Part shown: in pieces, positions 9,139 to 26,953 of the stretch
Layout of the letters: every line of letters begins with the position of its first letter
How positions within the stretch are numbered: the stretch's first letter is position 1
Origin: Phenylobacterium sp.
GTDB taxonomy: Bacteria; Pseudomonadota; Alphaproteobacteria; Caulobacterales; Caulobacteraceae
Length of the DNA: 64,000 nt
Direction of reading: 5' to 3'
NCBI RefSeq assembly: GCF_030651185.1
Contig: NZ_JAUSCJ010000041.1
Location: forward strand, 93,693 to 157,692
The notes under the pieces: generated by a model
The model's input: only the letters and a program-made list of their open reading frames with translations
Told to the model about the DNA's origin: nothing
Databases searched by the model: none
Program-made: the position numbers and the translations under genes

Positions 9139-9495
9139 ATGGCACGCGTTAAAAGGGGCGTTGTCGCCCACGCCCGTCACAAGAAGGTTCTTGAGCAGGC
9201 CAAGGGTTTCTACGGCCGCCGCAAGAACACCATCCGCACGGCCAAGGCTGCGGTCGACCGCGCCGGTCAGTACGCCTATCGCGACCGCAAGGTCCGCAAG
9301 CGTAATTTCCGCTCGCTCTGGATCCAGCGCATCAACGCCGCGGCCCGCATCGAGGGTCTGACCTACGCGACCTTTATCCACGGCCTCGACCTGGCCGGGA
9401 TCGAGATCGACCGCAAGGTCCTGTCGGACATCGCGGGCAACGACCCGGTTGCGTTTAAGGCCATCGCTGAGAAGGTTCGCGCCGCTCTGGCTTGA
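9139..9495 (+). CDS. rplT: 50S ribosomal protein L20
   Basis: [20 protein letters not shown]. Confidence 0.98.
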
Positions 9496-20400: not shown

Positions 20401-20545
20401 ATTCCTCCCCCAGGCCGTAGGCCGTTTCGGGGGAGGTGGATCGCAGGCCAGGCCTGCGAGACGGAGGGGGTTTGGGCCGTGGATGTGGCGAGGCCCCAGC
20501 CCCCTCCACCGTTTCGCGGTCCCCCTCCCCCGGTGGGGGAGGAAT
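20401..20545. repeat. 145-bp CIR-like palindromic element
   Basis: attcctcccc / ggggaggaat ends; near-identical same-length copy at 30764-30908. Confidence 0.85.
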
Positions 20546-20546
20546 G

Positions 20547-20714
20547 TTAGAGCCCCAGCTCTTTGCGTTGCGCCCAGGTCAGCTTGGCCGCGACCAGGCC
20601 GTGGGCCGTCGTCAGGCAGTCGCTGACCTCGGCGGCGTCCATCCCCGCCAGGTCCTCGAACCACACCCACCTGGCGCGCGCCAGATAGGGCGCGGAAGGC
20701 CCGATCCCAACCAT
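20547..20714 (-). pseudogene. C-terminal fragment of an MmcQ/YjbR-family gene
   Basis: SAPYLARARWV...TAHGLVAAKLTWAQRKELGL resembles the family C-terminus; only 55 codons remain. Confidence 0.65.
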
Positions 20715-20738
20715 CTTGCCACAGGTCGCCGACGCCGC

Positions 20739-20766
20739 TTGCCCGGGCGAGCTTCCTGAGTATATT
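20739..20766 (+). promoter_or_regulatory. Sigma70-like promoter of tRNA-Ser
   Basis: TTGCCC-N16-TATATT. Confidence 0.55.
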
Positions 20767-20807
20767 GCGCGCCTTCGCGGGCGGCCTGAGGGCGGCTTGC
20801 GACGGCC

Positions 20808-20897
20808 GGTGAGGTGGCGGAGTGGTCGATCGCGCACGCTTGGAAAGCGTGTTTAGGTGAAAGCCTAACGAGGGTTCGAATCCCTCTCTCACCGCCA
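20808..20897 (+). tRNA. tRNA-Ser(GGA)
   Basis: 90 nt; GGTGAGG/TCTCACC acceptor stem, CACGC-TTGGAAA-GCGTG anticodon arm, long variable arm, GTTCGAAT loop, encoded CCA. Confidence 0.97.
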
Positions 20898-21312
20898 AAA
20901 CTTCCGGTCCAACCGGCTCCCAATTTCACAGGTCGTGAAGCCCTCGGAATTCGCGGCGGATTTCCGCAGCTCCGGAGTTTGGCCTCCCACAAAGCCCGAT
21001 TTCAGAGGCGCTCATGAGCGTTTCGGGCCGCGTCTCCACCCGCGAGCGCCCCAGACCTGATCGGGTCGAGGCGGAGAGTCCCGACAATTTAAAGTCGCGA
21101 CCACCAATGCAAAGTTGAATGATAGCTGAAGAGAGGGTGTCTATTTCTGGTACGGTATCAAATACTATTAACTAATATTCCCTCTAGGCGTGTAATTTAT
21201 AGATAATATAGATTTTCGTTTTGAATAACCGAGACTTCTCTTTAGTCCCCTGCCCGACGTATTTGCGTAACGGCCTGCGCGCGGGCCGATTCTACTAAGG
21301 GGCGAATTCACC

Positions 21313-23298
21313 ATGAGCGAACTGATCACCAACGGCGGCTTCAGCACCGGCACATTTGCGGGCTGGACTGCGGGCAGCAACCAAACCAACCCGTATCAGG
21401 CCTCCTTCGGTGGGAGCGGTAATTCTCAGGTCGTCAATTCCACCTCAGGCCAACCGGCCTGGTTCATGCGTAACGTCGCAGGCGGCAGCGCCACTCCGAT
21501 AAGCGGCTACACGGCGTTTAATGGCTTCGACGGCAGCCCGGGTAAGTTCACCCTGAGCCAGACAATTCACATTGATGAGACCGTGTCCTCGGCCATCTTG
21601 AAGTTCGATTTCGCTTCCACCACCAGTTACAGTGGTGCGGCTCGCACCTTTGATGTTGTTCTCACCCAGGGCGGCGTCACAAAGGCCAGCTTCTATCATT
21701 TTGTGGCCCCGTTCGGCGACTCGGCCTGGAGCCCGGTCACGCAGGTGTCGCTGGATATCGGTGCGACCTTGAATTCGCTCAGCGCGGGTGACTACACGCT
21801 GACCTTCGTCGAGGTCATCCCCAGCAACTTCACCGGCCCCGGCGCCTTCGGTCTGGACAATATCTCGCTCAACGCCACCTTCGGCCCCAGCAACGTGGCG
21901 CCCGTCGCCGTCGCCGACGCCTTCGCGGCGACCGAGGATGGCGCGGCGGTGACGCTTAACGTGCTGGCCAACGACACTGACGCCGACGCCGGCGACACCA
22001 AGACCCTGGTCTCGGTCAACACCACGGGCACGACGGGGTCAGCGACCGCCAACGCCGACGGCACGGTGACCTACAATCCGGGCGCCAACTTCCAATCGCT
22101 GAAGGCCGGCGCCACGGCCACCGACACCTTCAGCTACACCCTGAAGGACACCGCGGGCCTGACCAGCACCACGACCGTCACCATGACCGTCACCGGCGTG
22201 AACGACGGTGTCATCGCCGTCGCCGACAGCGGCGCGGCGACCGAGGATGGCGCCGCGGTGACGCTGGACGTCCTGACCAACGACACCGACGTCGATGCGG
22301 GCGACACCAAGACCCTGGTCTCGGTCGACGCCACCGGCGCCCTGGGATCGGTGAGCGCCAACGCCGATGGAACCGTGAGCTACGTCACGGAATCGGCCTT
22401 CCAGAGCCTGAAGGCCGGCGCGACGGCCACCGACACCTTCAGCTATACGGTCCGGGATTCCGCCGGCGCCGAGAGCACGGCCTCGGTGACCATGACGGTC
22501 ACCGGCGTGAACGACGGACCGGTCGCCCTGGCGGACGCGGGGTCGGTTTCCGAAGACCAGTCGGTGATCCTCAACGTTCTGGCCAATGACACCGATATTG
22601 ACACTGGCGACCTGAAGACCCTCGTTTCCGTGTCGGCCACCACCAGCGGCGCCAGTGTCGCCATCGTCGATGGCAAGGTGGTTTACACCGCCGACGCAGA
22701 CACCCAGGACCTGTTGACCGAGGGTCAAACCGCGACTGACAGTTTCACCTATGTGATGGCCGACTCTGCGGGCGCCACCAGCACTGCGACGGTCAGCGTG
22801 ACGGTTGGCGGCGTCGCCAACGGGGCCAATATTCTTGGCACGGTGAAGTCCGATGTTCTGTTGGGCACGGCGGCCGACGAGCGTATCGAGGGCGGCAACG
22901 GCGACGACACCGTCAATGGCTACGACGGGGCCGACAACCTCTTCGGCGGCAACGGCGGCGACCGGCTGTTCGGCGGGGCGGGCATCGACCAGCTCTCCGG
23001 CGAAAATGGCTCCGACACTCTCGACGGTGGGGCCGGCAATGACATCCTGACTGGCGGGAACGGGCCGGACCGTTTCGTCTTCGGCGCCGGCTTCGGCAAC
23101 GATACGATCACCGACTTCAAGGCGCAGAACGACACCATCCAAATCGACCACAACCTGGTGGGCGGCTTCGGCGCCCTGATGAGCCACGCGTCCCAGGTCG
23201 GGAGCTCGGTGGTGATTGCACTCGACGCCGCCCACTCGATCACGCTGCAGGGCGTGAACCTGTCGAGCCTGAGCAGCAGCGACTTCGTCTTCTCCTGA
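21313..23298 (+). CDS. RTX-type secreted adhesin-like protein: N-terminal beta-rich domain, three Ig/cadherin-like repeats, GGxGxDxxx repeats
   Basis: Repeats start at 21892, 22201, 22510 (309-bp period, AxxDxxxxxED...NVLANDTD); about seven Gly/Asp nonapeptides; no Sec signal. Confidence 0.9.
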
Positions 23299-23306
23299 TG
23301 ACGGTG

Positions 23307-23334
23307 GACGGGGCGGCTTTACGGCCGCCCCGTC
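23307..23334 (+). terminator. Stem-loop after the RTX gene
   Basis: gacggggcggc / gccgccccgtc; no strong T-run. Confidence 0.55.
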
Positions 23335-23597
23335 TCAACTAGCTGGGGACACCCCCTGCGGGAGGCGCCTGACTATTGGACCTCCCCAACCCAAAGGGGC
23401 CTGCCCTATTCTTTGATCTGACCGCGCGGTGGCGACAGGCTGAAGCCAAAGAGTTCGCCAAGCGAAGGCGCACGGGCATGCTCATTGATTTCCCTCGGCA
23501 GCTGAGGACCGGGCGCGCCGGCAGGTACCGGCCATCCGTGGAGGAGTCCCACGAGTGGCTTGAGAGTTGTGGAGACAAGTCGACCTCCGCCTGTCCC

Positions 23598-23627
23598 CAC
23601 CGCCAAAACTTCCGGCCCAACCGGCTC
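23598..23627 (+). repeat. att-like direct repeat of the tRNA-Ser 3' end plus flank
   Basis: caccgccaaaacttccggcccaaccggctc matches 20890-20919 at 29 of 30 positions. Confidence 0.9.
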
Positions 23628-23704
23628 TCGGCCTTGGGGACGTTGCAAGCTCCGACAAACGCACGCGGGGCGAACGGAATGCCGCCCGCCTCGCGCGTCC
23701 TGGG

Positions 23705-24262
23705 CTACTTCACGCAGCAGCGGTTGATCTGCAGCTTGGCCGAGAGGACGCGGGTGTCGTCCTGCACATAGAAGCTCAGGCGATTGTCGGCGTTCATGGC
23801 GGCCAGGGCCGCTGCGCTCATGACGTAGACGCGGGTGGTGGGCTGGTTGATGGCCACCGGGAAGGCCGTGTAGACCGCGCCATTCAGGCCGGGGAAGGCG
23901 ACCCCGTTGCTCATGACCCCCATCGAGTCATTGCCGGCGTCCGAACCGGCGGCCGAGGTCCCGGCCTGGTTGGCCCGCAGGGTGATGGTCAGGGTGGCGC
24001 CCAGGATCTGGCAGCACTGGGGCGGCTTCCACTGGAAGGTGTGCAGGAAGAACTTGTTGGGCGCGGCGTCGTTGAGGCCCGCGCGGGCGATGGCGAGCAT
24101 GTCGGGCCGGAAGTCGGCGTTGATGGGCGTCGGCGTGCTCAGGTCGATCGTCTCATAGGACGGCTTTGGGCAGAGCATGGGACGGCCGGTGTCCTGACCC
24201 AGGGCCATGCCTGCCGACAGCAGACAGCCGATCAGGGCGGTCATGAAAATCGTGCGCTTCAT
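23705..24262 (-). CDS. Secreted Cys-containing hypothetical protein (185 aa)
   Basis: MKRTIFMTALIGCLLSAGMALG signal-like; C, CC, CC pattern; high GC3. Confidence 0.8.
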   Translation of the reverse strand: MKRTIFMTALIGCLLSAGMALGQDTGRPMLCPKPSYETIDLSTPTPINADFRPDMLAIARAGLNDAAPNKFFLHTFQWKPPQCCQILGATLTITLRANQAGTSAAGSDAGNDSMGVMSNGVAFPGLNGAVYTAFPVAINQPTTRVYVMSAAALAAMNADNRLSFYVQDDTRVLSAKLQINRCCVK

Positions 24263-24365
24263 CGGTCTACACCTCAATTGGATCGCCCAGGGTTTGCGCG
24301 AACTGAACAGAGGTCGTTGGGCCGAGGGAGGCGGTTCAAATCGCGCGCCCCCCTCGCGCCGCCAT

Positions 24366-24788
24366 CTAGTTGAACTTCGGACCAACCTTTTCGATCTTGT
24401 CGCGCGGGCTGATCAGCACGCAGGTCTGGCCGACCACCCGGTAGGGCCGGACCACGATATTCTGAGCGTAGGTCCCGATCGGTGCGCTGTTGGGATGCTT
24501 GAAGGTCAGCTTGTACGTGCCCTCAGGCAGCTGGAACTTGCGCACGGTTCCGGTGCTGTTCAGAGGGGCGGCCGGAAACATGGTGGCCGGCCCGCTGGGC
24601 TGCTTGCGGAAGGTGTACTCCAGGCCGACGTCGGCGAAGGAGAACAGGTTGAGTTTCACCGTGTAGACGCCCCCGCCGCCGGGGGCGATCTCGCAGATAT
24701 TGGTCGCCGAGGTGACCACCTGGGCGTCGGCGGACCCCGCCAGGGCCAGCCCCGCGGCGGTCGCCGCCATCATCATCCTGAGCCTCAT
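24366..24788 (-). CDS. Secreted hypothetical beta-rich protein (140 aa)
   Basis: ggaga SD; signal peptide ending ADA-Q; one Cys near each end of the mature chain. Confidence 0.8.
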   Translation of the reverse strand: MRLRMMMAATAAGLALAGSADAQVVTSATNICEIAPGGGGVYTVKLNLFSFADVGLEYTFRKQPSGPATMFPAAPLNSTGTVRKFQLPEGTYKLTFKHPNSAPIGTYAQNIVVRPYRVVGQTCVLISPRDKIEKVGPKFN

Positions 24789-25019
24789 GTCGTTTCTCCA
24801 TAGGCGGGCGCGCGGGACTGAATCCCGGCGACCTGGGGGGATGGAAGGAGACACTCCAGCCTGCTGCAACCGGCGCGAGCCCTCTGGCCTGCGACGGCTG
24901 CGAGGGACGCAGACCGTCCGCATCTCACCCCCAGCAGGTCGTTGGAAGCGGCGCCAAGGTTCAATCAGCCAGGGTTGTGCGCGCCTTCGCGGGCGGCCTG
25001 AGGGCGGCTCGCGACGGCG

Positions 25020-25107
25020 GGTGAGGTGGCGGAGTGGTCGATCGCGCACGCTTGGAAAGCGTGTTTAGGTGAAAGCCTAACGAGGGTTCGAATCTCTCTC
25101 ACCGCCC
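25020..25107 (+). pseudogene. Degenerate second copy of tRNA-Ser(GGA)
   Basis: Identical to 20808 onward until the T-arm; 2-nt deletion (aatctctctcacc vs aatccctctctcacc); ends GCCC rather than GCCA; 5' flank 24978-25019 also duplicated. Confidence 0.9.
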
Positions 25108-25210
25108 AAATTCTGCGATAAAACAAGATGTTACGGGCGTCGAAGGGTGATGTCCTTGGCGCATTGGCGGTCATGACGCCGCCTCCGGAACGGAGGCTCG
25201 GACGTCTCTC

Positions 25211-25906
25211 TCAGCGCGGCGCCCGGGGCCTGTGAGAAACGCGCCATGACGCGCGCCACGACACGGGAGACAGCGCCACCCGTCCGGGATCGGCCGCCCG
25301 CGGCCAACTGAGCTGGACTCGGACGACGCCCTCACCGCCAAAACGTCCTGTCAGGAGATCAGGGGCCCAATCACCTTGCTCGGGCCGGCGGGGGGGTGAC
25401 GGCTCGAACAAGCGCTCGCAGGGCAGCATGTCGTCGGGAAATTCCTTGGGCTCGATGTCGCCGGTGGCCAGCCCCGCGAGGAAATCGGTGAGGCCGCAAT
25501 CGAACGCCTCATACTCCCCCATGCCGCGATCCCAGACCACGACGCCCCAGGCGTCGGGTGGGCCGCGCGGGAGCCAAAGAAGATAGTCGCCGAAGTCGGT
25601 CTTCCCGAACGGCAGCAATCCGCCCGGCTCAGGCCACAGGGGATAGGGGCGATCCTCGTCATCCCGGAGGACGTCACAGATCACGCGAACTTCGGATTGC
25701 AGCCTCACATAGGGACTCCAGGACACCGGCACGTGGACTCCCACGAACTCCATAAAGCTGCCGAACCCGTAGAGCCGGACGAAGTCCTTGTAATCCTGGG
25801 GCAGGCCCGTTCCGAGGTCAGCCTCAATCGCTTCCCAAGGTCCGGCATAGGTTTCATCGGGCGCCACCGGCGGCGGGACCACCCTGATCAGGTTTTCAAT
25901 GGTCAC
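25211..25906 (-). CDS. SMI1/KNR4 (SUKH) immunity protein
   Basis: WEAIEADLGTGLPQDYKDFVRLYG, LLPFGKTDFGDYLLW; GTG start with ggagg SD overlapping the toxin stop. Confidence 0.88.
   Translation of the reverse strand: MTIENLIRVVPPPVAPDETYAGPWEAIEADLGTGLPQDYKDFVRLYGFGSFMEFVGVHVPVSWSPYVRLQSEVRVICDVLRDDEDRPYPLWPEPGGLLPFGKTDFGDYLLWLPRGPPDAWGVVVWDRGMGEYEAFDCGLTDFLAGLATGDIEPKEFPDDMLPCERLFEPSPPRRPEQGDWAPDLLTGRFGGEGVVRVQLSWPRAADPGRVALSPVSWRASWRVSHRPRAPR
25331..25344 (+). repeat. Short att-like copy of the tRNA-Ser 3' end
   Basis: ctcaccgccaaaac identical to 20888-20901. Confidence 0.65.
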
Positions 25907-26852
25907 GCTTCCTCCCCGCAGGATTCTCGATGATGCGAGCGATGGGCGCCCCGCGAGAACCAAGCGCAGCGAGCAGAATTCTCGCAGGCGCGAGCACTCC
26001 CGCATTGTACAGCGGCATTGCTGTATACTGGATGATTTCCCCCGCCTTGACCCGCCGCCCCGTCGCGTTCTCGAAGCGCTGCATCAGAGATGAGTTGGTT
26101 GGATTTTGCGTCAATGTGACGAGGTCTAGTGGGCTCCGACCTGAACCTCCAAGTTGCTTTGCTTGGAGGTGTCCCCGCGCTTCATTGTACTTTGTCCCGT
26201 CGCCTTGCCAACCGGGCGGGGTCACCCGCCGGTTGGCCTTCGTCCCAGAGCCGAGAGTGGAGGCTGTTAGAGTCGCAACCAACCCCGTCGCCTGTCCAAG
26301 CGGGGTGGGGCGACCGTGTCTGACCGCAGGCTGTTTGACCAAGGGCGGCGCCAACACTGGTCGTCTGGCCGTCGGCGCAAGAGGGGCGAACCTGGGACGG
26401 GGTGCAGCCCCGAGGAGTGCGGCATCCGCCGCACTTCCGCCTATCAGCGCCCCGTTGCGCGCCTGTGGGGATGCGTTCGCGAGCGTGGCGATCGCATAGG
26501 CGGCGCTCCCGAGCGGGTGGTCCGCCATGAAGAGGGCGCGAGTGACCGCCTGCCTCCGGTCTGCGCGCACGGTGGGCGAGATCGCCGGATCATCAACGTG
26601 CACCAAGACGTCGGCGCGCCCATTGTCGACTCGCCTGTAGGTTCGACCGCCGATCGTGACATAGGGGTTCGGACGAGCGGCTCGATTGAGCAAGGCGAGA
26701 CGCCCATAAGCTGAGGGGAATGATCCCGCAGCTAGAGGCGTCGGCGCGGCTATCGCACTCTGCCCTGCACCACGCTGTCGGACCAATTTGCCATGCGGGT
26801 CACCCAAAGGATTAGGAACGGAACGCGGCTTTCCATTCGGCATCTCCGCCAT
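25896..26852 (-). CDS. Polymorphic-toxin-like protein with C-terminal DNA/RNA non-specific (His-Me) endonuclease
   Basis: PPGWQGDGTKYNEARGHLQAKQLGGSG, LVTLTQNPTNS..M..FE motifs; SUKH gene directly downstream. Confidence 0.85.
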   Translation of the reverse strand: MAEMPNGKPRSVPNPLGDPHGKLVRQRGAGQSAIAAPTPLAAGSFPSAYGRLALLNRAARPNPYVTIGGRTYRRVDNGRADVLVHVDDPAISPTVRADRRQAVTRALFMADHPLGSAAYAIATLANASPQARNGALIGGSAADAALLGAAPRPRFAPLAPTARRPVLAPPLVKQPAVRHGRPTPLGQATGLVATLTASTLGSGTKANRRVTPPGWQGDGTKYNEARGHLQAKQLGGSGRSPLDLVTLTQNPTNSSLMQRFENATGRRVKAGEIIQYTAMPLYNAGVLAPARILLAALGSRGAPIARIIENPAGRKRDH

Positions 26853-26938
26853 TCAACATCTCTTTCGCTCGCGATTTCGCCGGCGCGGCCTTGGCTGCCG
26901 CATCTGGAAAATCTGCCACAAGCTCGCTCTTTTGTCTA

Positions 26939-26953
26939 GAACAAAACAAGAAC
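26939..26953 (-). promoter_or_regulatory. Alphaproteobacterial LexA (SOS) box
   Basis: GTTC-ttgtttt-GTTC on the minus strand, abutting a TAGACA -35-like hexamer (26933-26938), 86 nt before the toxin ATG. Confidence 0.8.

Follow-up and report, generated by a model that had tools for sequence, protein, structure and literature searches.

In the textbook case of lambda-gal, an aberrant excision is followed by integration via host homology: through one illegitimate joint, DNA internal to the prophage becomes linked to the host DNA next to attL; the prophage loses its far end, and the captured host segment is finally present as two direct copies on either side of a defective element. Long att identity blocks are known from SLP1 (~112 bp) and HP1 (~182 bp), in which the repeat spans the whole tRNA gene and is stably carried by an active element that encodes its integrase. 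According to the Islander signature, an island is recognized by an intact tRNA gene at one end and, at the other, by a direct repeat of its 3′ fragment; the insert is missing from sister genomes, and such inserts can form a tandem array at a hot spot (PMC4383910). The same publication stated, in 2014, that no serine integrase was known to use a tRNA gene as its target (PMC4383910). The islands integrated in the ssrA (tmRNA) gene of Dehalococcoides form tandem arrays downstream of this small-RNA gene, with short repeats of its 3′ end between them, and carry a reverse-strand serine-recombinase gene beside attL and a ParB-domain gene nearby; their integrase-less members have been proposed to be cis-mobilizable elements (PMC3146451).

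The locus described here is located in a stretch of 64,000 nucleotides, hereafter called the window, that corresponds to positions 93693 to 157692 of the 283-kb contig C4 in the 4.1-Mb draft genome of a Phenylobacterium sp. It contains a tRNA-Ser(GGA) gene and, behind a 4.2-kb insert, a second copy of this gene. The reconstruction proposed below for this copy would share with lambda-gal the illegitimate joint beside attL, the loss of the far end and the duplication of a host segment; in contrast to lambda-gal, we infer the event from a 4.2-kb relic that carries no phage genes. As in SLP1 and HP1, the repeat spans the whole tRNA gene, but no such active element is found here and the leader included in the repeat is private to the host. 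All the features of the Islander signature listed above are present except that (i) the repeat is the whole tRNA gene with a 42-nt leader instead of a 3′ fragment, (ii) the insert is devoid of integrase and (iii) its proximal arm comes from a serine-recombinase element. The locus resembles the ssrA islands by its array organization and by a reverse-strand serine-recombinase module beside the left junction, which is found in the elements of related genomes, but its target is tRNA-Ser(GGA) instead of tmRNA and one of its repeats reaches 130 bp whereas every repeat is 20 bp long in Dehalococcoides. Overall, the second copy is genuine and probably a pseudogene; as a recombination scar, it is unusual by its length but ordinary by its mechanism.

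Structure of the locus

Alignment with MAFFT and repeat search revealed two copies of the same sequence, R1 (20766-20897) and R2 (24978-25107), at a spacing of 4212 bp Table 1. The repeat unit consists of the 42-nt leader and of tRNA-Ser(GGA), and amounts to 130 bp in R2. The insert is thus flanked by the intact tRNA gene at one end and by a repeat in direct orientation at the other. Identity starts at 20766, exactly at the final base of the second hexamer of the sigma-70-like promoter. A first-pass annotation of the window, made from the sequence alone, had already read the onset of identity in this way (20766 compared to 24978) and its extension over the leader and the tRNA, and both are supported by the alignment and the repeat search.

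R1 and R2 are identical except for four changes: (i) T>C in the leader (20798/25010), (ii) C>G at position -1 (20807/25019), (iii) the loss of CC in R2 and (iv) CCA>CCC in R2. The 2-nt deletion and the change of CCA had been noticed previously; the alignment retrieves both and places the deletion in the 3′ strand of the T stem. R1 carries the sole intact gene of the GGA isoacceptor, as the other serine anticodons of the genome (GCT, TGA and CGA) are each served by one gene.

Table 1. Position of the features of the tRNA-Ser(GGA) locus in the window
Feature	Position	Strand	Evidence and remarks
Promoter-like site of the R1 tRNA-Ser	20739..20766	+	TTGCCC-16-TATATT; kept in relatives
R1 5′ leader, left part of R1	20766..20807	+	Alignment, repeat search
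Functional tRNA-Ser(GGA) in R1	20808..20897	+	ARAGORN, Rfam 57.3 bits, RNAfold cloverleaf
Y arm, putative relic of the element-side arm of a large-serine-recombinase element, 140 nt	20898..21037	+	76-90% identical to arms in G177, G182 and G137; with the tRNA end, attL-like junction
RTX cargo gene, 661-aa Big_9/cadherin-like/RTX adhesin-type protein	21313..23298	+	Pfam
Internal junction (site 2)	23570..23627	+	35-nt IS6-terminal-repeat-like arm ending with CACCGCC, followed by an exact copy of the first 23 nt of the Y arm
Cargo gene S1, small secreted protein	23705..24262	-	Signal peptide; no Pfam match
Cargo gene S2, small secreted protein	24366..24791	-	Signal peptide; no Pfam match
Segment X, unique non-coding DNA, 186 nt	24792..24977	.	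Right end (24977/24978) is the sole novel, non-homologous joint
R2 leader copy, left part of R2	24978..25019	+	Alignment
Probable pseudo-tRNA-Ser(GGA) in R2	25020..25107	+	CC deletion, CCA>CCC; Rfam 40.1 bits; with the next flank, attB-like junction
Ancestral downstream spacer (~220 nt)	25108..25330	.	Follows the tRNA in G102 and G059a, and the distal repeat in G016; missing from G059b
Fourth, old copy of the tRNA 3′ end, CGCCCTCACCGCCAAAA	25327..25343	+	Repeat search; in G059b, the tRNA itself is joined here
SUKH immunity gene and Endonuclease_NS_2 toxin gene, older cassette of the same array	25211..26852	-	Pfam; ~75% orthologue in G102 and G059

R2 is far longer than ordinary att repeats, as had been suspected: the other repeated tRNA fragments found in the islands of this genome measure 45-53 nt, and the tRNA-Ser(GGA) fragments found elsewhere in the genus measure 50-58 nt or 17 nt. 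The accompanying statement of the first-pass annotation, that att duplications involve only the 3′ part of the tRNA, holds for most cases but not as a rule.

The integration site in related genomes

Upstream of the repeat, the order LepA, DUF983, MFS transporter, DUF599, promoter, leader and tRNA is syntenic across all close relatives. Downstream, the tRNA of three contigs from relatives (G102:C23, G059:C159 and G059:C197) is directly joined to a homologue of positions 25108-26953 of the window (~75% identity), which corresponds to an empty site. The two G059 contigs read as belonging to two strains present within one mixed bin (G059a and G059b). The tRNA of G016, the closest relative, is separated by a 14.9-kb island from a 17-bp repeat, CTCTCTCACCGCCAAAA, which is followed by a homologue of positions 25093-25564. 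These empty sites and the flank of the distal repeat of G016 indicate that the sequence located 3′ of R2 is the ancestral downstream flank. Furthermore, since the sister Phenylobacterium genomes are devoid of the 4212-bp block, this block is an insertion in the genome studied here. R1 has therefore retained the ancestral upstream flank and the promoter, and R2 rests on the ancestral downstream flank; R2 with this flank thus has the shape of an unoccupied target site (attB-like), in which the 17-bp core is almost intact (16/17).

The island of G016 (G016:C1:2625040-2639935; L035 13040-20000 and L036 1-7935) carries a P4-type tyrosine integrase gene, a Toprim/AAA_25 replication module, a gene encoding a protein of >1378 aa with weak matches to P-loop/STAND-type NTPases and a gene encoding a DUF4145 protein; this content may be that of a defence island.

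The region that follows R2 is itself composite. The toxin/immunity cassette found behind the spacer is entirely missing from G112. The further copies of the tRNA end, the loss of the spacer in G059b and the loss of this cassette in G112 indicate that the locus is a layered array of relics. The final ~40 codons of the SUKH ORF cross the fourth copy of the tRNA end and enter the 220-nt spacer (25211-25343). In G059b, which has no spacer, the SUKH homologue terminates against the tRNA. This comparison suggests that the C-terminus of the SUKH protein may be encoded by relic DNA.

Content of the insert

The insert begins with the Y arm, for which related elements provide a probable source. In G177 and G182, a homologue of this arm is located directly behind tRNA-Ser(GGA). 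In G177, the arm leads within ~330 nt to a gene encoding a large serine recombinase (LSR) of 589 aa, whose Resolvase and Recombinase domains were confirmed, followed by DUF2924, DUF3489 and ParB/methylase-like genes; no LSR gene is visible in G182 because the contig ends inside the arm. In G137, the same arm and an LSR fragment adjoin an arm that looks like an IS6 end and not a tRNA. In G094, a more distant homologue of the element lies behind tRNA-Ser and encodes an LSR 66% identical to the one of G177. An LSR gene is therefore found beside the homologous arm in G177, G094 and G137, but is absent from the window. On the basis of this homology, R1 and the Y arm have the form of the left junction of an LSR element, whose body would have been lost here.

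A family of LSR elements encoding LSR, DUF2924, DUF3489 and ParB/methylase-like proteins is thus found behind tRNA-Ser(GGA) in several Phenylobacterium species (G177:C11, L059 1-4315; G094:C34, L065 7445-12100; G182:C68, L066; G137:C17, L051). In G094, where the element is carried by a 245-kb contig, no repeat of the tRNA region of at least 13 nt was found within 60 kb, and tRNA-Ser(GGA) occurs only once in the whole genome. Duplication of the tRNA is therefore not a normal outcome for the elements of this family. We also considered an element that would carry a tRNA and insert at the border between promoter and leader; this was ruled out by G094, in which the element coexists with only one copy of the tRNA.

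A second junction of the same type is found inside the insert. Positions 23598-23627 match positions 20890-20919 at 29 of 30 bases, i.e. the end of the tRNA (CACCGCC) and the first 23 nt of the Y arm. The 35-nt arm located on its left side (window 23570-23604; TGGAGACAAGTCGAC...CACCGCC) resembles the terminal repeat of an IS6-family element, and intact IS6-family elements of that kind are present on contig C12 of the same genome and in G182. No significant match to an IS6 transposase remnant was found to the left of this arm at 23570. The junction between an IS6-like arm and the element start recurs in G137 (L051 679-713) and, in a weaker form, on contig C12 of the same genome (C12:109461-109495). 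In at least two genomes, an IS6-like end is thus joined to the element arm at exactly the nucleotide where the tRNA end meets it. A secondary target or a microhomology may be provided by CACCGCC, the heptamer that the two ends have in common. Further sites with an arm resembling an IS6 end were observed at C12:120117-120150 and in L072 and L073.

The cargo has several origins. The RTX block shows 89% DNA identity to a region of G059:C175 (L052 6919-9281) that is located directly behind tRNA-Arg(CCT) in that genome. An exact-protein look-up of the RTX protein gave no record for other assemblies. The genome studied here has its own tRNA-Arg(CCT) gene (C12:123479-123555), which is followed by a truncated tyrosine integrase gene and two IS6 copies.

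Homologues of S1 and S2 are found at other chromosomal loci in G016, G059, G146 and G102. In G059 (C170, L053 6988-13051) and G146 (C183, L054 7604-13654), the S1 and S2 homologues bracket a ~5-kb cluster homologous to a region located at 44.7-49.5 kb of contig C24 in the genome studied here, and the S1/S2 unit is near tRNA-Leu(TAA). They bracket a shorter part of this C24-like cluster in G102 (C6, L055 8863-11409). In G016 (L050 9162-14000), S1 and S2 are side by side and adjoin the C24-like cluster.

Segment X yielded only chance matches among the 197 genomes of the genus. At its right end (24977/24978), the unique DNA of the island is directly joined to the leader, from the first base of the latter, and no homology is found on the left side of this joint.

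The insert has att-like repeats at both ends and carries neither integration nor transfer genes, as do cis-mobilizable elements and decayed islands. Pfam search detected no recombinase domain in the ORFs of the insert, and a scan of the genome for PF00589 gave no match on the 283-kb contig C4. By tblastn, the tyrosine integrase of G016 had no match near the insert and the LSR of G177 had no homologue anywhere in this genome.

State of the duplicated tRNA gene

R2 had been described as a promoterless and structurally damaged pseudo-tRNA linked to the cassette, with the advice to score both copies; the promoter scan, Rfam, ARAGORN and RNAfold all point in this direction. With the Rfam tRNA model, R2 scores 17 bits below R1 and two of its T-stem pairs are non-canonical, although its score still exceeds the gathering threshold of 29 despite the damage. 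ARAGORN calls tRNA-Ser(GGA) at 20808-20897 and makes a second call at 25019-25108, but it fits R2 only out of register: a shift of one base is needed, which gives a G.G mismatch atop the acceptor stem and a T stem of 4 bp. The minimum-free-energy fold computed by RNAfold is a cloverleaf for R1, but not for R2.

The consensus scan of positions 20500-25500 detected only one sigma-70-like site, the one of R1, and no promoter-like site upstream of R2 on the + strand of X. The gene that neighbours R2 on its upstream side is divergent and would not provide read-in transcription. A conserved hairpin in the leader was unsupported by RNAalifold. R2 is therefore probably a dead duplicate, i.e. a pseudogene, even if neutral decay is not statistically demonstrable from a pair that differs at just four places. 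As both ARAGORN and the Rfam tRNA model still call R2 a tRNA-Ser, automatic annotation would count a second, probably dead, GGA gene in this genome.

ARAGORN also called 92-nt tRNA-Phe genes within coding regions of the window (9315-9406 and 23110-23201, minus strand) and a tRNA-Pro gene inside a repetitive gene on contig C2 of the same genome (C2:72774-72852). All these calls within genes are probably false positives, and none of those located in the window reaches the Rfam tRNA threshold. The apparent duplication of tRNA-Pro on contig C2 was accordingly discarded as a false ARAGORN call in a repetitive coding region.

Origin of the duplication

The leader and the tRNA were aligned with those of eleven relatives. 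The leader states common to R1 and R2, CGCGGGCGGCCTGAGGGCGGCT, are found in none of these relatives, G016 included. The T found at 20798 in R1 is derived, all the relatives and R2 having a C at this position; conversely, the G at position -1, the CC deletion and CCC are derived states of R2. Since they have private leader states in common, R2 arose from the gene of its own lineage after the split from G016. The duplication is probably young relative to this split, as ~2 leader changes separate R1 from R2 compared to 4-5 that separate them from G016, although such very small counts give only a rough idea. The first-pass annotation had proposed that R2 could be a relic of the tRNA end of a donor chromosome, carried in with the cassette. 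The leader bases private to this lineage and the continuity of the 3′ end of R2 with the ancestral downstream flank speak against this origin.

No other full-length repeat of the leader and tRNA was found among the 197 genomes of the genus. Two apparent double matches were examined and rejected: those of G059 come from the two syntenic contigs of the mixed bin, and those of G177 from contig ends that overlap by 127 nt. The CC-deleted variant had no match in GTDB representative genomes, and neither the X/R2 joint nor the junction between the tRNA end and the Y arm had any match in metagenomes.

We consider that R2 has, with good probability, no function and arose as a by-product when DNA recombined at a hot spot for islands. 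An LSR element, or a tandem pair, would once have been integrated behind the tRNA. A single illegitimate join, comparable to the aberrant excision of lambda-gal or to the joint of a tandem duplication, would then have fused a point internal to the element (24977) to a point located 42 nt upstream of the tRNA (20766). Two routes could have followed: either homologous recombination within the 130 bp with a chromosome carrying an empty site, or site-specific excision of all the DNA that extends from a second left junction to the right one. Both routes would have led to the order tRNA, relic, tRNA′ and flank and to the loss of the recombinase gene, and R2 would then have drifted by C>G at position -1, deletion of CC and change of CCA into CCC.

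A single illegitimate join is the simplest account; the two other junctions are of standard types, one attL-like (R1 and arm) and the other attB-like (R2 and flank). The 5′ limit of the repeat at the edge of the promoter is taken as the chance position of the illegitimate breakpoint. No intermediate form was found in the 197 genomes of the genus, in GTDB representative genomes or in metagenomes. Overall, R2 is most likely the remnant of the recombination of 4.2 kb of mobile DNA into the much-used insertion hot spot located behind tRNA-Ser(GGA); apart from its unusual length, it is a scar of the kind that islands ordinarily leave.

Among the other explanations, R2 could be the own arm of an element whose attP comprised the leader and the whole tRNA, that integrated site-specifically and whose integrase gene was later deleted. 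The position of R1 and R2, which flank the insert in the manner of attL and attR, and the presence of an element arm at the start of the insert fit this scenario, for which the long att identity blocks of SLP1 and phage HP1 offer a precedent. We nevertheless find it unlikely: the intact related elements have no tRNA-like distal arm (no second copy being found in G094), the att sites of serine recombinases need no long identity and no such element was found among the 197 genomes of the genus. Furthermore, as the leader of R2 carries private states, its prior capture by the element from the same lineage would be required.

It is improbable that the 20.9-27 kb region is a tRNA-anchored array of cassettes devoid of its own integrase and served in trans by the serine recombinases of visiting elements, for which R2 and its flank would constitute a regenerated and usable attB. 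If this were true, the array could gain and release cassettes without any risk for the sole tRNA-Ser(GGA) gene, and would act as an integron-like platform based on tRNA ends.

The first-pass annotation also raised the possibility of a decoy integration site or RNA. R2 could in this case have a function, either by offering a spare target that keeps integration away from the real gene, or through an RNA that is regulatory or resembles a tRNA. The almost intact 17-bp core next to the flank and the score of 40 bits as a tRNA are in favour of such a role. However, with neither a promoter-like site nor a cloverleaf, with changes that are not compensatory (C>G at position -1 even breaks a pair needed by the shifted register) and with no conservation that could point to selection, R2 being unique among the 197 genomes of the genus, such a function is very improbable.

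There is an extremely small probability that an error of assembly or sequencing created R2 or the differences between the two copies. The CC deletion does affect a CCC run, which is error-prone on some platforms, but each copy has distinct unique flanks inside one 283-kb contig and the three substitutions are not expected from a collapsed or duplicated repeat.

The proposal that a tRNA precursor was reverse-transcribed and then inserted as R2 fits the extent of R2, which spans roughly the transcribed region without its promoter, but can practically be dismissed, because the final base of the -10 hexamer is already part of the repeat, whereas the transcript is expected to start some 5-8 nt downstream of this hexamer in sigma-70 promoters, because R2 is not at a separate insertion site, its 3′ end being continuous with the ancestral flank without any target duplication, and because Pfam detected no reverse transcriptase in the insert.

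Consequences and further variability of the locus

As a recombination scar, R2 serves mostly as a caution and as a marker, and the pseudo-tRNA by itself raises no new question. The 130-bp direct repeat makes the 4.2-kb block encoding the adhesin and the secreted proteins liable to loss by homologous recombination. More generally, tRNA-Ser(GGA) is the target of at least three kinds of integrating elements in Phenylobacterium, one of them with an LSR.

An extra segment of ~2.1 kb that carries a gene encoding a TPR protein is located between DUF599 and the promoter of the tRNA in G016, G059a, G102, G112 and G097. It is absent from the genome studied here (window 20695-20702 compared to L035 10749-12844), which indicates that the upstream side of the tRNA is variable too.
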